Origin: Escherichia coli
GTDB taxonomy: Bacteria; Pseudomonadota; Gammaproteobacteria; Enterobacterales; Enterobacteriaceae
Strand: one strand, 5' to 3'
Length of the DNA: 64,000 nt
NCBI RefSeq assembly: GCF_013315695.1
Contig: NZ_CP054353.1
Shown here one piece after another: positions 5,184 through 44,414 of this stretch (its first letter is position 1; every line of letters starts with the position of its first letter). A model generated the notes under the pieces. The model did no database searches. It had not been told where the DNA came from and was given only the letters and a program-made list of their open reading frames with translations. The translations under genes and the position numbers were made by a program.

Positions 5184-6170
5184 ATGATACGTTTCGCTGT
5201 GATTGGTACGAACTGGATCACTCGCCAGTTCGTCGAGGCCGCCCATGAGAGCGGTAAATACAAGTTAACTGCCGTTTATTCCCGCAGTCTTGAACAGGCC
5301 CAGCACTTCGCCAATGATTTTTCTGTCGAGCATCTGTTTACGTCGCTGGAAGCGATGGCAGAAAGCGATGCCATTGACGCGGTGTATATTGCCAGCCCGA
5401 ATTCCCTGTACTTTTCCCAGACACAACTTTTCCTTAGTCACAAAATTCATGTGATTTGCGAGAAGCCACTGGCGTCGAATCTGGCGGAAGTGGATGCCGC
5501 CATTGCCTGTGCGCGGGAAAATCAGGTGGTGCTGTTTGAGGCATTTAAAACCGCCAGCCTGCCGAACTTTCATCTGTTGCGCCAGGCGCTGCCGAAAGTC
5601 GGCAAACTGCGTAAAGTCTTTTTCAACTATTGCCAGTATTCCTCGCGGTATCAACGTTACCTGGATGGTGAGAATCCCAACACCTTTAATCCGGCATTCT
5701 CTAACGGTTCAATTATGGATATCGGCTTTTACTGCCTGGCGTCGGCGGTGGCATTATTCGGTGAACCGAAAAGCGTGCAGGCAACCGCCAGTTTTTTGGC
5801 AAGCGGCGTAGATGCCCACGGCGTGGTGGTGATGGATTACGGTGATTTCAGCGTTACGTTGCAGCACTCAAAAGTGAGCGATTCTGTCCTGGCAAGCGAG
5901 ATTCAGGGCGAAGCAGGATCGCTGGTGATTGAAAAACTGTCTGAATGCCAGAAAGTTTGCTTTGTTCCGCGTGGCAGCCAGATGCAGGATCTCACCCAAC
6001 CGCAGCATATTAATACCATGCTCTACGAAGCAGAGCTGTTCGCTACCCTGGTGGATGAGCATCTGGTGGATCATCCAGGGCTGGCGGTCAGTCGCATCAC
6101 CGCCAAACTGCTGACCGAGATCCGCCGCCAGACTGGGGTGATTTTTCCGGCAGATAGCGTAAAACTATAA
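5184..6170 (+). CDS. ygjR: Gfo/Idh/MocA-family NAD(P)-dependent oxidoreductase
   Basis: ORF 5166..6170; start at MIRFAVIGTNWITRQF gives 328 aa; Rossmann-type N-terminus. Confidence 0.8.
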   Translation: MIRFAVIGTNWITRQFVEAAHESGKYKLTAVYSRSLEQAQHFANDFSVEHLFTSLEAMAESDAIDAVYIASPNSLYFSQTQLFLSHKIHVICEKPLASNLAEVDAAIACARENQVVLFEAFKTASLPNFHLLRQALPKVGKLRKVFFNYCQYSSRYQRYLDGENPNTFNPAFSNGSIMDIGFYCLASAVALFGEPKSVQATASFLASGVDAHGVVVMDYGDFSVTLQHSKVSDSVLASEIQGEAGSLVIEKLSECQKVCFVPRGSQMQDLTQPQHINTMLYEAELFATLVDEHLVDHPGLAVSRITAKLLTEIRRQTGVIFPADSVKL

Positions 6171-39276: not shown

Positions 39277-40215
39277 CTAACCAACTTCTATTAATTGCCT
39301 TCGTCTACACCCATTATAAGATGAATACTCTTTGGCTAATTCCACCAAAACCGATGCTGCTTTTTTAATACGATAATTTTTCGACCATACCGCGGCATAT
39401 TGTGCCACAGGTAATGTTTCTTCAACCGGAATAGTAATAAATTGATTTGAACCAAAAGGTGATGTCATATCACAAGGAATTACAGTTAAGAAATCAGCAT
39501 TGAGAACAAGATTATAAATTGTCACGACTGAGTCGGTTTTAACGATGTTTTCAATACTGATGCCATTTCTTTGTAACGTAGTAAGTAGCTCGCTGTAGTA
39601 CCCCATATTGGTTTGTGGCAACACCCACTGTTCGTTCTTCAACGACTCCAGCGTGGTGGTGCCGGTGCATGTTCGGGACTTACTGGCTACCAGCACAAAC
39701 TCGGACTCGAACAGCGGCTCAACATGTAAATCCTGAAGCTTCATTTCTGCACTTAACGTACCAATCGCAAAATCCAGTCGACCGTCGCGGATTGCCGGTA
39801 AGAACGAAGACAGTTGCGCTTCATACATAGAAACCTGCGCTTTCGGGAACACCTCTTTGAACTTGTTGATCATCCCTGACATAAAAGTAAAACCAATCAA
39901 TGAAGGAAAACCAAATGAGACTTCCACCACCGCCTCAGCAGACATACCGCTTATCTCATTAACCATATTTTTCATTTCACGGGTAATGGATTCGGAACGA
40001 GAGAGTAACAATTGACCGGCAGGTGTTAATGTTACACCGGTATTTTTCCGCACCACTAATTCCACACCAAAATAATCTTCAATATCGTTAATGATTTTAC
40101 TGACGGCCGGTTGAGTTAACCCTAATTCTTTTGCAGCCGAGCCGATAGAACCACTTCTAATGACTTCCTGAAAGACTACCAGGTGCTGCGTTTTCGGAAG
40201 AAGAATAGTGCTCAT
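39277..40215 (-). CDS. tdcA: LysR-type activator of the tdc operon
   Basis: 312-aa ORF, first gene of the tdcABCDEFG operon. Confidence 0.9.
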   Translation of the reverse strand: MSTILLPKTQHLVVFQEVIRSGSIGSAAKELGLTQPAVSKIINDIEDYFGVELVVRKNTGVTLTPAGQLLLSRSESITREMKNMVNEISGMSAEAVVEVSFGFPSLIGFTFMSGMINKFKEVFPKAQVSMYEAQLSSFLPAIRDGRLDFAIGTLSAEMKLQDLHVEPLFESEFVLVASKSRTCTGTTTLESLKNEQWVLPQTNMGYYSELLTTLQRNGISIENIVKTDSVVTIYNLVLNADFLTVIPCDMTSPFGSNQFITIPVEETLPVAQYAAVWSKNYRIKKAASVLVELAKEYSSYNGCRRRQLIEVG

Positions 40216-40403
40216 AACGACCTACGTTAATTACCTCATTGACGGCATGAAGTGTATCAAAATGAAATGAACAGGATATGTGCGACCACTCACAAATTAA
40301 CTTTCAATACTTTCCAGGGTATCGTTATTTAAATTAAATATCTTTATATATCAATAAGTTAAAGTATAAAAATCAGCATAAACCCTGATTTTTGTCAAAA
40401 AAA
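40216..40403. promoter_or_regulatory. tdcA / tdcR divergent AT-rich promoter region
   Basis: AT-rich spacer between divergent tdcA and tdcR; individual CRP/IHF/TdcA sites not resolved by eye. Confidence 0.4.
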
Positions 40404-40748
40404 ATGACGGGGATAACCATATTTTATGGCGATAACATCATTCGTTATGTGGTTAATACAAAAAAGGGGCTGAGGCCATATTTCAAGCAATTACCGGATA
40501 ATTACCAGGCAAAATTTGAGTTAAATTTAATGAGCAAGTTCTCAAATTTTATTATAAATAAACCATTTTCAGCGATAAATAATGCGGCACGTCACATTTT
40601 TTCACGCTATTTGTTGGAGAACAAACATTTATTTTATCAATATTTTAAAATTTCGAATACATGTATTGATCATCTCGAACAATTGATTAACGTCAACTTT
40701 TTCTCTTCTAACAGGACGTCATTTTGTGAATGCAATCGTTTTCCATAA
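40404..40748 (+). CDS. tdcR: tdc operon regulator TdcR
   Basis: ORF 40392..40748, AT-rich; start chosen at MTGITIFYG; true start uncertain. Confidence 0.55.
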   Translation: MTGITIFYGDNIIRYVVNTKKGLRPYFKQLPDNYQAKFELNLMSKFSNFIINKPFSAINNAARHIFSRYLLENKHLFYQYFKISNTCIDHLEQLINVNFFSSNRTSFCECNRFP

Positions 40749-41003
40749 ATTCCTCTCCCCTCATAGGCGACGAATAGCATTTTGTGTTGAGGATCACAAA
40801 ACGAATAATTGCTGGTCGCCGCGATAAGGTCAGCCAAAGACAACAAGGGGAATTTTCACAGAGCTTTTGATCGGCGTAGGCCACAGAATGTTGCTTCGTT
40901 TACTGTAATGCCGGGTAAATGAGCGTTTTTTGATAGTGCGAAAGAACCCTGCGAGGAAAATAAGCATCTATTATTGTTTGTCATGATGACAAGGCAGGCA
41001 TCA

Positions 41004-41543
41004 ATGAAAGGCTTCCCAATTGCACATATTTTTCACCCTTCAATCCCGCCAATGCACGCAGTGGTTAACAATCACAACAGAAATATTGATTATTGGACGG
41101 TAAAAAGAAAGTTTGCAGAAATTGTCTCCACCAATGACGTTAATAAAATATACAGTATAAGTAATGAACTGCGGAGAGTATTATCTGCAATTACTGCATT
41201 GAATTTCTATCAAGGCGATGTTCCTTCTGTCATGATTCGAATCCAACCGGAAAATATGAGTCCATTCATCATAGATATTTCTACAGGAGAACATGACGAT
41301 TATATCATACAAACATTAGATGTAGGCACTTTTGCACCTTTTGGCGAACAATGTACTTGCTCAGCCGTCAATAAAAAAGAGCTGGAGTGTATTAAGGAGA
41401 CGATTTCTAAGTATTGTGCAAAATTCACCCGAAAAGAAGCCATCTTACCCCCCCCTACGTATTTTAATAAAACATCCATTCCTTCAGATTGTTGGCAAAT
41501 TCTCTTTTTTTCACCCGATCATTTTAATAATGATTTTTATTGA
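41004..41543 (+). CDS. yhaB: Uncharacterised protein YhaB
   Basis: ORF 40974..41543, AT-rich; start at MKGFPIAHIF gives 179 aa; start uncertain. Confidence 0.6.
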   Translation: MKGFPIAHIFHPSIPPMHAVVNNHNRNIDYWTVKRKFAEIVSTNDVNKIYSISNELRRVLSAITALNFYQGDVPSVMIRIQPENMSPFIIDISTGEHDDYIIQTLDVGTFAPFGEQCTCSAVNKKELECIKETISKYCAKFTRKEAILPPPTYFNKTSIPSDCWQILFFSPDHFNNDFY

Positions 41544-41564
41544 TTATTTATAAAGGATAAAATA

Positions 41565-42740
41565 ATGTCCCCTGTTTCATCAATTGGTAATGATATTAGT
41601 AGTGATTTAGCCCGTCGAAAAATGAATGACCTTCCTGAAAGCCCCATAGGAAATAACCTCGAAGCACTAGCACCAGGCATAGAAAAACTAAAACAGACCT
41701 CTATTGAAATGGTCACTTTACTTAACGCGTTACAACCAGGTGGGAAATGCATTATCACTGGTGATTTTCAAAAAGAATTAGCGTACTTACAAAATGTAAT
41801 TCTTTATAATGATTCGTCTCTTCGTATGGATTTTTTTGGTTATAACGCCCGAATTATTCAACGATCAGACAATACCTGTGAACTTACAATTAATGAACCG
41901 TTAAAAAACCAGGAAATATCCACAGGCAATATCAATGTTAATTGCCCATTGAAAGACATTTACAATGAAATCAGGAGGTTGAACGTAATCTTTAGTTGTG
42001 GGACTGGAGGTATAGTTGATCTATCCTCTCTGGACTTACGGAATGTCGATTTAGAACTTTATGATTTTACAGATAAACATATGGCCAATACAATTTTAAA
42101 TCCTTTTAAATTGGATGACACAGATTTTACTAATGCCAACATGTTTCAGGTAAATTTCGTTAGTTCAAAACAAAACGCCACAATCTCATGGGATTATTTA
42201 CTAAAAATAACGCCTGTTATAACAAGCATTAACGATATGTATTCTGAAGAAAAAATTAAGCTTGTCGAAAGTTGTTTAAATGCGCTTGGAGATATTACCG
42301 AAGAACAATTAAAAATCATGAGACTTGCAATTATAGAATCTATACCAAGAGCAACTCTAACAGATCAATTAGAAAATGAATTAACAAAAGAAATATATAA
42401 AAGCTCATCGAAAATTAACAATTACTTGAACAGAATTAAATTACCAGAGATGAAAGGATTCTCATCAGAAAAAATAGATTATTACATCGATATAATCATT
42501 AAAGATTATGAAAGCGTCAAAGAAAATGCTTATCTAATCGTTCCAAAAATTAATTACAATACAGATTTAAACATAGAGGATTCTAGCTCAGAGGAATTCC
42601 TTTCAGATAATACACTAGAGAAAGACGAAAATTCTCATGACAATTGCTTTGAGGTCGTAAAATATAACACATATGAAGCTTATAACTCAGAGAAGCAATA
42701 TTTTACCAGAGAGGACTATACGTATGATTACGACCTTTAA
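41565..42740 (+). CDS. yhaC: Uncharacterised protein YhaC, with a short run of pentapeptide-like repeats
   Basis: 391-aa AT-rich ORF; repeat-like stretch LSSLDLRNVDLELYDFTD...LDDTDFTNANMFQVNF. Confidence 0.7.
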   Translation: MSPVSSIGNDISSDLARRKMNDLPESPIGNNLEALAPGIEKLKQTSIEMVTLLNALQPGGKCIITGDFQKELAYLQNVILYNDSSLRMDFFGYNARIIQRSDNTCELTINEPLKNQEISTGNINVNCPLKDIYNEIRRLNVIFSCGTGGIVDLSSLDLRNVDLELYDFTDKHMANTILNPFKLDDTDFTNANMFQVNFVSSKQNATISWDYLLKITPVITSINDMYSEEKIKLVESCLNALGDITEEQLKIMRLAIIESIPRATLTDQLENELTKEIYKSSSKINNYLNRIKLPEMKGFSSEKIDYYIDIIIKDYESVKENAYLIVPKINYNTDLNIEDSSSEEFLSDNTLEKDENSHDNCFEVVKYNTYEAYNSEKQYFTREDYTYDYDL

Positions 42741-42827
42741 AATGCAATATAGACTTAATAATTTCTTACAAAGTCTATTATTAATACCGTAGATATTTAT
42801 TCATCTTACACTATGCTCCAAAAAGCA

Positions 42828-42850
42828 AAAACCCGCCGAAGCGGGTTTTT
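42828..42850. terminator. Bidirectional rho-independent terminator (yhaC on plus, rnpB on minus)
   Basis: AAACCCGC-CGAA-GCGGGTTT perfect hairpin flanked by T-run on plus and A-run (T-run on minus). Confidence 0.7.
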
Positions 42851-42859
42851 ACGTAAAAC

Positions 42860-43236
<377 letters not shown>

Positions 43237-43268: not shown

Positions 43269-44414
43269 TCACCCCGCGTTGCGCATTCCAATCGCCAGTG
43301 TCGCGGCGATATTACGTGAAGCACGGTAAATATTGTCATAAGCCCCGCGGAATGCTTCGTCCAACGTACCAATACTGGTCAATACGCTGAAGACCGCATC
43401 AATGCCATGCTGATGTACAACGCCAACATCATTGGTCAGGCTACCCGCAATGCCAATCACCGGTTTATGGTACTTTTTCGCCACGTTTGCGACGCCAATC
43501 GGAACCTTGCCGTGTATACTCTGGCTGTCAATACGCCCTTCACCGGTGATCACCAGCGTACAATCGTGAATATGTTCCTCCAGATTCAGCGCCGTAGTGA
43601 CGATTTCAATACCGCTTTTCAGTTCCGCACCAAGAAACGCCATTAGCGCCGCGCCCATACCACCCGCAGCTCCTGCGCCGGGGACATCTTTCACATCAAC
43701 ATGCAGCGCTTTTTTAATGACATCGGCATAGTGAGAGAGGTTATTGTCCAGCTCAACAATCATCGCTTCACTGGCTCCCTTTTGTGGGCCAAAGATGCGC
43801 GATGCGCCGTTATCACCCACCAGCGGATTGGTGACATCACAAGCGACGCGAATGACGCAATCTTTTAAGCGCGGATCGAGGCCGGAAATATCAATATCAT
43901 TCAGAGTATTAAGACTACCGCCGCCAAAACCAATTTCATTGCCGTTGGCGTCGCATAATTTCGCCCCCAGCGCCTGTACCATGCCTGCACCGCCATCATT
44001 TGTAGCGCTACCGCCAATGCCGATAATAATGTTTGTCGCGCCGCTCTCCAGCGCCTGCAGAATTAACTCGCCTGTGCCGCGTGAAGTGGTCACGAGTGGA
44101 TCACGTTTTTCCGCAGGTACCAGCTCCAGCCCACTGGCCGCCGCCATTTCAATAAACGCGGTTTTGCCATCGCCGGAGATCCCCCAACTGGCATTCACCT
44201 TCTCGCCCAGCGGCCCTGTAACCCAGGCGTGACGTTCGGAACCCTGGGTGGCTGCAATCATCGCTTCCACCGTTCCTTCGCCACCGTCGGCAACAGGAAC
44301 AGAAACGTACTGTGCATCAGGAAAAATTTCCCGAAATCCTTTTTCTATCGCCTGCGCAACCTCGCTGGCAGATAAACTTTCTTTATAAGAGTCTGGGGCG
44401 ATTACGATTTTCAT
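43269..44414 (-). CDS. garK: Glycerate 2-kinase
   Basis: ORF 43269..44495; conserved start MKIVIAPDSYKESLSA gives 381 aa. Confidence 0.9.
   Translation of the reverse strand: MKIVIAPDSYKESLSASEVAQAIEKGFREIFPDAQYVSVPVADGGEGTVEAMIAATQGSERHAWVTGPLGEKVNASWGISGDGKTAFIEMAAASGLELVPAEKRDPLVTTSRGTGELILQALESGATNIIIGIGGSATNDGGAGMVQALGAKLCDANGNEIGFGGGSLNTLNDIDISGLDPRLKDCVIRVACDVTNPLVGDNGASRIFGPQKGASEAMIVELDNNLSHYADVIKKALHVDVKDVPGAGAAGGMGAALMAFLGAELKSGIEIVTTALNLEEHIHDCTLVITGEGRIDSQSIHGKVPIGVANVAKKYHKPVIGIAGSLTNDVGVVHQHGIDAVFSVLTSIGTLDEAFRGAYDNIYRASRNIAATLAIGMRNAG

Follow-up and report, generated by a model that had tools for sequence, protein, structure and literature searches.

Several described systems resemble tdcR-yhaB-yhaC, a small locus of Escherichia coli that lies next to the RNase P RNA gene rnpB at 40216-42740 of a 64,000-nt stretch of DNA (contig NZ_CP054353.1; this whole stretch is called the window). 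The AT-rich orphan islets of strain K-12 that are bound by H-NS, or 'promoter islands', are of the same kind. They include a 706-bp island internal to yhaC, bound by H-NS in all studies cited in that work, and a 477-bp H-NS-bound island at tdcA/tdcR, and both have been tied to genes predicted to be foreign (PMC3661553). The pair yhaB-yhaC has also been listed as a young, homogeneous operon (PMC12218254). While composition, H-NS binding and a suspected foreign origin are thus already on record, the analyses described here add a two-layer structure, the age of the genes, their independent deletions, an insertion hot spot at the junction, and an allelic divergence centred on pentapeptide repeats. 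With genomic islands at tRNA and tmRNA genes, yhaB-yhaC share a stable-RNA neighbour, deviant base composition, a patchy distribution and a reused site, but they possess neither an integrase nor a copy of the RNA 3' end on the far side, they are located beyond the terminator of the RNA gene, and the cargo is only 2 kb. The O-antigen, flagellin and hsdS loci are allelic cassettes of E. coli kept diverse by selection. Loci of this type have in common with yhaB-yhaC a bounded block, here of 11-28% divergence, old alleles, recombinants and presence/absence variation; the products YhaB and YhaC, however, lack signal peptides and membrane segments and are not known to be exposed to phages or to immunity.

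The account favoured here, to which a probability of roughly 0.6 is assigned, holds that two layers of different age lie side by side. The first, from 40216 to about 40800, would be an extended upstream control region of tdc, composed of the tdcA-tdcR spacer, tdcR and a distal CRP-type site. It would represent ancestral AT-rich non-coding DNA common to Citrobacter and Salmonella, with a tdcR open reading frame (ORF) in Escherichia. The second layer, from about 40800 to 42815, would be a two-gene cassette, yhaB-yhaC, that entered an ancestor of Escherichia in a single event and came to lie between the control region and the rnpB terminator. In Enterobacteriaceae this is a recurrent point of insertion and recombination, and no integrase would be involved. 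The cassette products would be two soluble proteins lacking transmembrane segments. The cassette, H-NS-bound according to the literature, would persist as sharply bounded alleles whose divergence equals that between Escherichia species.

To follow the locus through the family, GarK was searched in one genome per species, which yielded 80 Enterobacteriaceae loci. garK and rnpB are adjacent in 78 of them, the remaining two ending before rnpB, and in 32 species rnpB is followed by tdcA. None of the 75 species outside Escherichia whose conserved garK-rnpB junction was sampled has yhaB-yhaC, and five other Escherichia species have tdcR without yhaB and yhaC. Remnants of the cassette were detected as well. 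E. albertii retains the yhaB upstream region and 127 bp of the 5' part of yhaB (nhmmer E = 6e-18), while in Escherichia sp. MOD1-EC7003 the yhaB upstream region (E = 5e-28) is fused to yhaC at about codon 313 (E = 1.2e-6). One deletion within E. coli, leaving 34 codons of yhaB and 21 of yhaC, is common to 1061 of 5426 complete genomes, and its copies are 95-100% identical to one another. IS1-mediated deletions of yhaBC were also observed. Sequence comparison thus dates yhaB-yhaC to before the separation of E. coli from E. albertii and indicates at least three independent losses. The cassette is intact in about three quarters of complete E. coli genomes, and among sampled complete genomes holding the locus YhaC or YhaB is annotated as intact in about 95% of the rows.

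The alleles of the cassette revealed considerable diversity. Full-length YhaC proteins fall into classes that are 98, 95, 89, and 63% identical to that of the window. Synonymous divergence (dS) between classes ranges from 0.20 to 0.65 for yhaC and from 0.11 to 0.52 for yhaB, with 0.57-0.65 and 0.49-0.52, respectively, at the upper end; tdcA, tdcB and garK, which flank the cassette, show 0.01-0.16 in the same strains. When Escherichia species are compared with one another, these flanks give a dS of 0.35-0.80. Nucleotide divergence from the divergent allele is 0-7% up to tdcR, 11-28% over 40716-42815, and about 1% in rnpB. The drop from 28% to about 1% occurs across the rnpB terminator hairpin (42825-42852, minus strand; terminator scan, 12-bp stem), which marks the right edge of the divergent block. 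Within yhaC, divergence peaks at codons ~118-217 and in the tail, reaching 28% in the pentapeptide segment, and in codons 121-150 differences are found at 17 of 18 synonymous sites (proportion of differing synonymous sites, pS, 0.94; of nonsynonymous sites, pN, 0.14). One recombinant allele (P0028) joins two YhaC classes near residue 240, and the divergent allele is always found at this locus. Such a pattern is that of a cassette polymorphism which is old and recombines; the divergent allele could alternatively have been introgressed from an unsampled Escherichia lineage. The allele of the strain studied here is rare, since at least 99% identity over the region was found in only 6 of 5422 matching genomes. 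One of its carriers by sequence, strain MSB1_4I, is 100% identical over 40216-42860 and has tdcA, tdcR, yhaB, a 'YhaC family protein', rnpB and garK annotated.

yhaB (41004-41543, plus strand) specifies an orphan protein of 179 aa and yhaC (41565-42740, plus strand) one of 391 aa. The yhaC start is 21 nt from the yhaB stop, with a Shine-Dalgarno sequence, AAGGA, 7 nt 5' of the ATG. Ratios of nonsynonymous to synonymous divergence (dN/dS) were calculated according to Nei-Gojobori from three alleles, those of the window and of K-12 and the divergent one of strain MFDS1019527. In frame, values of 0.20-0.26 for yhaB and 0.26-0.37 for yhaC were obtained, against 0.7-1.7 and 0.8-1.5, respectively, out of frame. 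Variable columns are distributed over the three codon positions as 27/21/49 in yhaB and 84/77/139 in yhaC, and no mononucleotide shuffle kept either frame open. The frame-specific ratios, the excess of third-position changes and the failure of shuffled sequences to remain open indicate that yhaB and yhaC are genuine coding genes under purifying selection, although constraint on the flanks is stronger (dN/dS of tdcA, tdcB and garK 0.00-0.06).

These values bear directly on the proposal that yhaB-yhaC are decaying leftovers, their divergence reflecting relaxed constraint and their loss neutral erosion. Signs of decay do exist. Deletion affects about 20% of E. coli and each of the five further Escherichia species sampled, IS1 insertions were seen, YhaB frameshift variants and truncated YhaC clusters occur, H-NS silencing has been reported, and the tail of YhaC shows a dN/dS of 0.7-1.0 between allele classes. 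In addition, the strain studied here has lost the last four codons of yhaC: a change of TTA to TAA at 42738-42740 removes the conserved C-terminal LNAI, and the protein comprises 391 aa instead of the 395 aa found in most strains. Relaxed constraint is difficult to reconcile, however, with frame-specific ratios of 0.20-0.37 versus about 1 across alleles with a dS of up to 0.65, with a dN/dS of 0.10 in yhaC codons 91-180, with a 1.2 kb ORF remaining open at 32% GC (guanine plus cytosine) content, and with the high proportion of intact annotations mentioned above. Decay is therefore considered unlikely as an explanation for the cassette as a whole.

An origin of yhaB-yhaC de novo in AT-rich intergenic DNA, with expansion of repeats and no transfer, would account for the lack of homologues among 1.84 billion representative proteins, matches to pentapeptide repeats aside, and for the absence of a confident fold in AlphaFold2. 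It is also compatible with the adjacent tdcR, which resembles an ORF opened in conserved non-coding DNA, and with the ability of pentapeptide repeats to grow by local duplication. The gap between rnpB and tdcA is equally AT-rich across genera (GC 0.32-0.39 in 27 other species), so that the site is no less AT-rich when empty than when filled; AT-richness alone is therefore no evidence of import here. Yet in 21 non-Escherichia species this gap measures 620-990 bp and contains only short frames, several of them running into rnpB, and nothing resembling the cassette of about 2 kb. Moreover, the appearance of two adjacent constrained ORFs of 179 and 395 codons, with parts at a dN/dS of 0.1 and saturated synonymous sites, is not expected from such a process, and the repeat segment matches genuine pentapeptide-repeat proteins with E = 6e-11. 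Birth in place is accordingly judged quite improbable.

The first layer of the favoured account rests on DNA conserved well beyond E. coli. The segment 40216-40814, which includes the spacer (40216-40529, GC 0.315), tdcR and about 65 bp more, is 79-87% identical in five other Escherichia species and matches Citrobacter and Salmonella at 66-71% over 430-590 bp (blastn). The spacer by itself is 76-90% identical in other Escherichia species, and a core around 40340-40436 is kept out to Enterobacter and Lelliottia. Two CRP-type sites frame the region. The promoter-proximal one, TGTGCGACCACTCACA (40279-40294), is inside the spacer and is found at position 64 from the tdcA start in 11 of 11 aligned species. 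The distal one, TGTGTTGAGGATCACA (40783-40798), marks where the highly divergent block with yhaBC has its left edge. Counted from the tdcA start, it lies at 567/568 in all eleven aligned sequences, and this position is kept in Escherichia and Citrobacter, species without yhaBC included. In these genera the spacing between the two sites is a constant 503/504 bp, and the AT-rich DNA between them is nearly free of insertions and deletions. Such constancy suggests that the DNA upstream of tdc is organised in a phased nucleoprotein complex or a loop. Binding of CRP to the distal site has been shown by in-vitro footprinting and was listed under yhaB (PMC12871828); although the literature files it there, the site is older than yhaB. 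In yhaBC-less species, sequences diverge immediately beyond it, and the stretch from there to rnpB yielded no candidate for a conserved element. An FNR-type site, TTGATTAACGTCAA (40683-40696), is located inside tdcR, in which an FNR site was identified by chromatin immunoprecipitation (PMC1802558). Insertions of IS5 target the tdcA-tdcR spacer region in the mouse gut (PMC7518454), and peaks for RpoS and RpoH from systematic evolution of ligands by exponential enrichment fall within the tdcR-yhaB-yhaC interval (PMC5493296).

The status of tdcR as a gene (40530-40748, plus strand, 72 aa) is less clear. TdcR matches family NF008507 with 169.7 bits over 72 of 72 positions (curated cutoff 100). Among ten Escherichia sequences, however, variable columns are spread evenly over the codon positions (30/28/31; chi-square p = 0.92), and the in-frame dN/dS of 0.3-1.1 is no different from out-of-frame controls. 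Five diverged Escherichia lineages nevertheless keep the frame open, the probability of this by chance being 0.05-0.41 per lineage, and in Escherichia it is open more often than expected by chance. It is broken in one Escherichia species locus (L006) and in one E. coli lineage (L002). A stop in tdcR was also considered as a general trait of the haplotype carrying the E. coli deletion, but this was dropped, as two further genomes of that haplotype carry an intact tdcR. The homologous DNA of Citrobacter and Salmonella contains one to four stops and a 1-bp insertion/deletion in this frame. With this mixed evidence, tdcR looks like a weakly constrained ORF within conserved tdc regulatory DNA. The frame may have been gained in Escherichia or lost in the Salmonella-Citrobacter branch, both being in agreement with the sampled taxa.

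On the right side, the cassette borders on rnpB (42860-43236, minus strand; Rfam RF00010, 318.6 bits, full length 1-367), which encodes RNase P RNA class A, is uninterrupted and serves as a conserved landmark of the locus; garK follows at 43269-44414 (minus strand). In six other species, the rnpB-tdcA gap is filled with 2-5 kb of unrelated cargo, comprising a phosphotransferase system/aminosugar cluster, a chemoreceptor, IS4 fragments, a DeoR regulator and proteins without known role. The junction therefore represents a recurrent insertion point. Two of the cargoes consist of gene pairs, one in Enterobacter soli (locus L031, 197-2027), encoding a 477-aa and then a 134-aa protein with hydrophobic segments, and one in Citrobacter amalonaticus (locus L029, 357-2318), encoding proteins of 331 aa and 213 aa. 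None of these four proteins matched an NCBIfam family; the pairs may be toxin/immunity or defence pairs. No integrase or recombinase was detected among the ORFs of 40216-42740 with Pfam, NCBIfam and PHROGs, and no direct repeat of at least 12 nt, such as an att-like or transposon-end repeat, flanks the yhaBC block. Copies of a repeat made up of the rnpB 3' end and its terminator do occur, on the rnpB side only. The repeat is present once in this strain (42741-42859) and in three to four tandem copies in K-12 and in the Escherichia species locus L006, and this variation in copy number explains strain length differences of about 280 bp at the yhaC-rnpB junction. The tandem stretch itself is seen at 5538-6150 of locus L001 and in the gap of locus L006. 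A further observation at the junction concerns MOD1-EC7003 (locus L009), in which dS to the window is 0.12-0.14 for tdcA and tdcB and 0.65 for garK; a recombination breakpoint between E. coli-like and foreign DNA is therefore placed at the rnpB-tdcA junction of this strain.

With both layers described, the original prediction, an old horizontally acquired module of three genes that used the stable RNA gene as an integration landmark, can be evaluated. Its description of the locus was accurate. The GC content of 40216-42740 is 0.337, compared to 0.507 +/- 0.030 in the other 2.5-kb windows (z = -5.7), the minimum of the whole 64 kb. It is 0.292 for tdcR, 0.361 for yhaB and 0.322 for yhaC (0.28 at third codon positions), whereas tdcA (39277-40215, minus strand), garK and rnpB have values of 0.422, 0.531, and 0.618. 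The three genes, which are the only long ORFs of the interval, do lie on the plus strand beside rnpB, 119 bp separating the yhaC stop from it, though the first 314 bases of the interval belong to the tdcA-tdcR control region and not to a gene. As for history, yhaB-yhaC fit an old acquired module, being restricted to Escherichia with a patchy distribution, documented by old remnants and without homologues outside, but tdcR does not: its DNA extends to Citrobacter and Salmonella and the positions of the CRP sites are kept, and it is thus part of the old tdc control region and not an import. Similarly, a recurrent insertion site next to rnpB is apparent from the six species with other cargo, but signs of site-specific integration, an integrase or att repeats, are missing. 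A common arrival of tdcR, yhaB and yhaC in the manner of a tRNA-linked island, in spite of their shared strand and AT-richness, the recurrent use of a site next to a stable RNA gene, and binding of H-NS to the tdcA/tdcR region as well as to yhaC, is very improbable. Citrobacter and Salmonella have the tdcR DNA but no yhaBC, other Escherichia species have tdcR alone, allelic divergence rises only past tdcR, there is no integrase or att-like repeat around the block, and rnpB is intact with the insertion beyond its terminator.

YhaC matches its own family, NF007262, with 858.7 bits (cutoff 765) over residues 1-391 of 395 profile positions. A short run of pentapeptide-like repeats and an acidic, Tyr-rich C-terminus had been predicted, and both are present. 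Residues 151-200 (42015-42164, plus strand) consist of ten consecutive units, VDLSS LDLRN VDLEL YDFTD KHMAN TILNP FKLDD TDFTN ANMFQ VNFVS, all with L, F or M as the centre residue; if they folded like known repeats, they would form about 2.5 turns of a beta-helix. The last 66 residues (326-391; 42540-42737, plus strand) contain 17 D/E, 5 K/R and 8 Tyr, resulting in a pI of 4.05. This tail is presumably disordered; its C-terminal motif YTY(D/N)YDLLN(A/E)I is conserved and the rest is variable. Residues 1-35 include 10 S/T/N. Pentapeptide-repeat proteins (PF00805/PF13599), such as Qnr, MfpA, McbG and AlbG, share with YhaC the tandem units with a hydrophobic centre and a preceding D/N, but in YhaC the helical turns are few, against about 8-10 in the gyrase protectors that mimic DNA, and they are flanked by N-terminal and helical regions that are unrelated and by the acidic tail. 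In Pfam, the pentapeptide-repeat matches were below threshold (E = 0.057 for Pentapeptide_4, and 3.2). An exhaustive HMMER search with a YhaC profile, run over 1.84 billion representatives, gave 88 matches, among them one full-length representative, YhaC fragments and pentapeptide-repeat proteins. Long proteins of the last group reached E = 6e-11 to 1e-3, summed over several stretches, and all of them aligned only to residues ~140-210. Full-length relatives, 63-98% identical, are alleles of E. coli and Shigella only. Only the repeats align with YjbI (E = 1e-3), the product of the K-12 pseudogene yjbI and like YhaC an enterobacterial pentapeptide-repeat protein, and the alignment to P0176, a metagenomic repeat protein of 938 aa, covers the repeats plus a capping helix and nothing else. 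A profile search of the PDB produced weak matches to pentapeptide-repeat structures and chance matches. A hit to DUF5617 (E = 0.35) was rejected, as it was above E 0.1 in every allele scanned alone and no mention in the literature was found; hits to Pox_VLTF3 and similar Pfam families look like composition noise.

For YhaB, a precomputed Pfam assignment exists (PF27690/UCP004546), while the Pfam scan performed here yielded no family even at E <= 10. A word-indexed search of 5.8 billion protein clusters returned sequences of E. coli and Shigella alone, for YhaB as well as for YhaC. Residues 1-125 are conserved; C117 and C119 are invariant across all aligned alleles, and two more Cys are kept in alleles without frameshift. 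The last ~50 residues are often altered, as C-terminal frameshift variants are common, for example in a cluster with 3287 members (P0077). A C-terminus of the P0077 type is read from a +1 ORF at 41332-41553 within the 3' part of yhaB (41300-41553). Neither YhaB nor YhaC contains a hydrophobic or transmembrane segment or a signal peptide. AlphaFold2 models had pLDDT (predicted local distance difference test) values of 31.6 for YhaC (17 alleles), with no strands in the pentapeptide segment, and 34.7 for YhaB (9 alleles), which is unusable; the low-confidence secondary structure of YhaB reads helix-strand-strand-strand-strand-helix. Apart from the families named after the proteins themselves, no relatives of YhaB or YhaC were found in Pfam, NCBIfam, PADLOC, PHROGs and two scans of viral contigs. 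In PADLOC-DB 2.0, the best value for YhaC was E = 0.026 and YhaB had no match. Publications retrieved with 'yhaC' or 'yhaB' mostly use unrelated abbreviations, and none gives a function. The statement that both proteins lack an assigned function therefore still holds after profile, domain, structure-model and literature searches.

Proposals on function are consequently tentative. When the secondary structure of the low-confidence model is read together with the sequence, YhaC may consist of an N-terminal alpha/beta part, a helix-capped pentapeptide beta-helix of 2.5 turns, a helical region, and a flexible acidic, Tyr-rich tail. It could act as a binding or scaffold protein with the beta-helix and the tail as diversifying surfaces and YhaB as its co-inherited partner, and the pair would most likely serve an antagonistic interaction, be it with a phage, a competitor or the host, and not a housekeeping role. 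That the two proteins form a partner-binding pair in an antagonistic interaction is a possibility with the odds clearly against it; still more doubtful is the specific form that yhaB-yhaC constitute a two-protein module for conflict that is specific to Escherichia, for example a pair acting in defence, immunity or as effectors, and a new family unrelated to known defence or effector systems. A relic type III effector of the pentapeptide-repeat type (PipB2, the EspX family, SopA/NleL) with YhaB as chaperone is suggested only by architecture, that is, a Ser/Asn/Pro-rich non-repeat N-terminus, a pentapeptide segment and a conserved C-terminal motif as in PipB2, by a small gene directly upstream with its low-confidence helix-four-strand-helix model, and by an AT-rich cassette confined to enteric bacteria, and it is hardly credible, given that similarity is at the level of repeats as with YjbI, that no effector family is among the 88 profile matches, that YhaB fits no chaperone family, and that the other sampled Escherichia species lack the cassette.

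Several points weigh against the two-layer account and the role proposed for the cassette. The in-depth analysis relies on three DNA alleles only. Import is deduced because outgroups lack the cassette and the locus has about 2 kb more DNA, rather than from a source sequence. No domain was found beyond the sub-threshold pentapeptide match, searches of PADLOC, PHROGs and the PDB gave no result, both AlphaFold2 models failed, and the functional part is what we infer. A published scan of wastewater E. coli places yhaC in its top 14 for positive selection (PMC9110714). The pairwise estimates made here do not reproduce this signal, dN/dS being below 1 outside the tail and exceeding 0.7 only within it. 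Finally, the high dS could partly be caused by a raised mutation rate or by the lack of codon-usage selection in silenced AT-rich DNA.

Elsewhere in the window, a CS1-type (alternate chaperone-usher) fimbrial operon is located between exuR and exuT at about 14418-19518. It contains genes for a chaperone, the major subunit, a TcfC-like usher and a CfaE/CblD tip adhesin. The other AT-rich part of the window, at 17.5-20.1 kb, where GC falls below 0.40, is due to this operon. At about 1925-2415, the identical genome has a truncated higB toxin pseudogene annotated beside higA, an antitoxin gene that is intact.

tdcR, which is listed as a transcription factor, bears an unusual evolutionary signature. 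yhaB and yhaC are constrained and unique to Escherichia but dispensable in many lineages, and their polymorphism is of a type usual at loci of antagonistic interaction. For this reason, assays of phage response, competition and host colonisation look more promising than screens for a metabolic role. If yhaB-yhaC were indeed a conflict module, long-term balancing or diversifying selection on its recognition surfaces, the short beta-helix and the acidic tail of YhaC, would explain alleles as old as species, mosaic recombinants and repeated loss.

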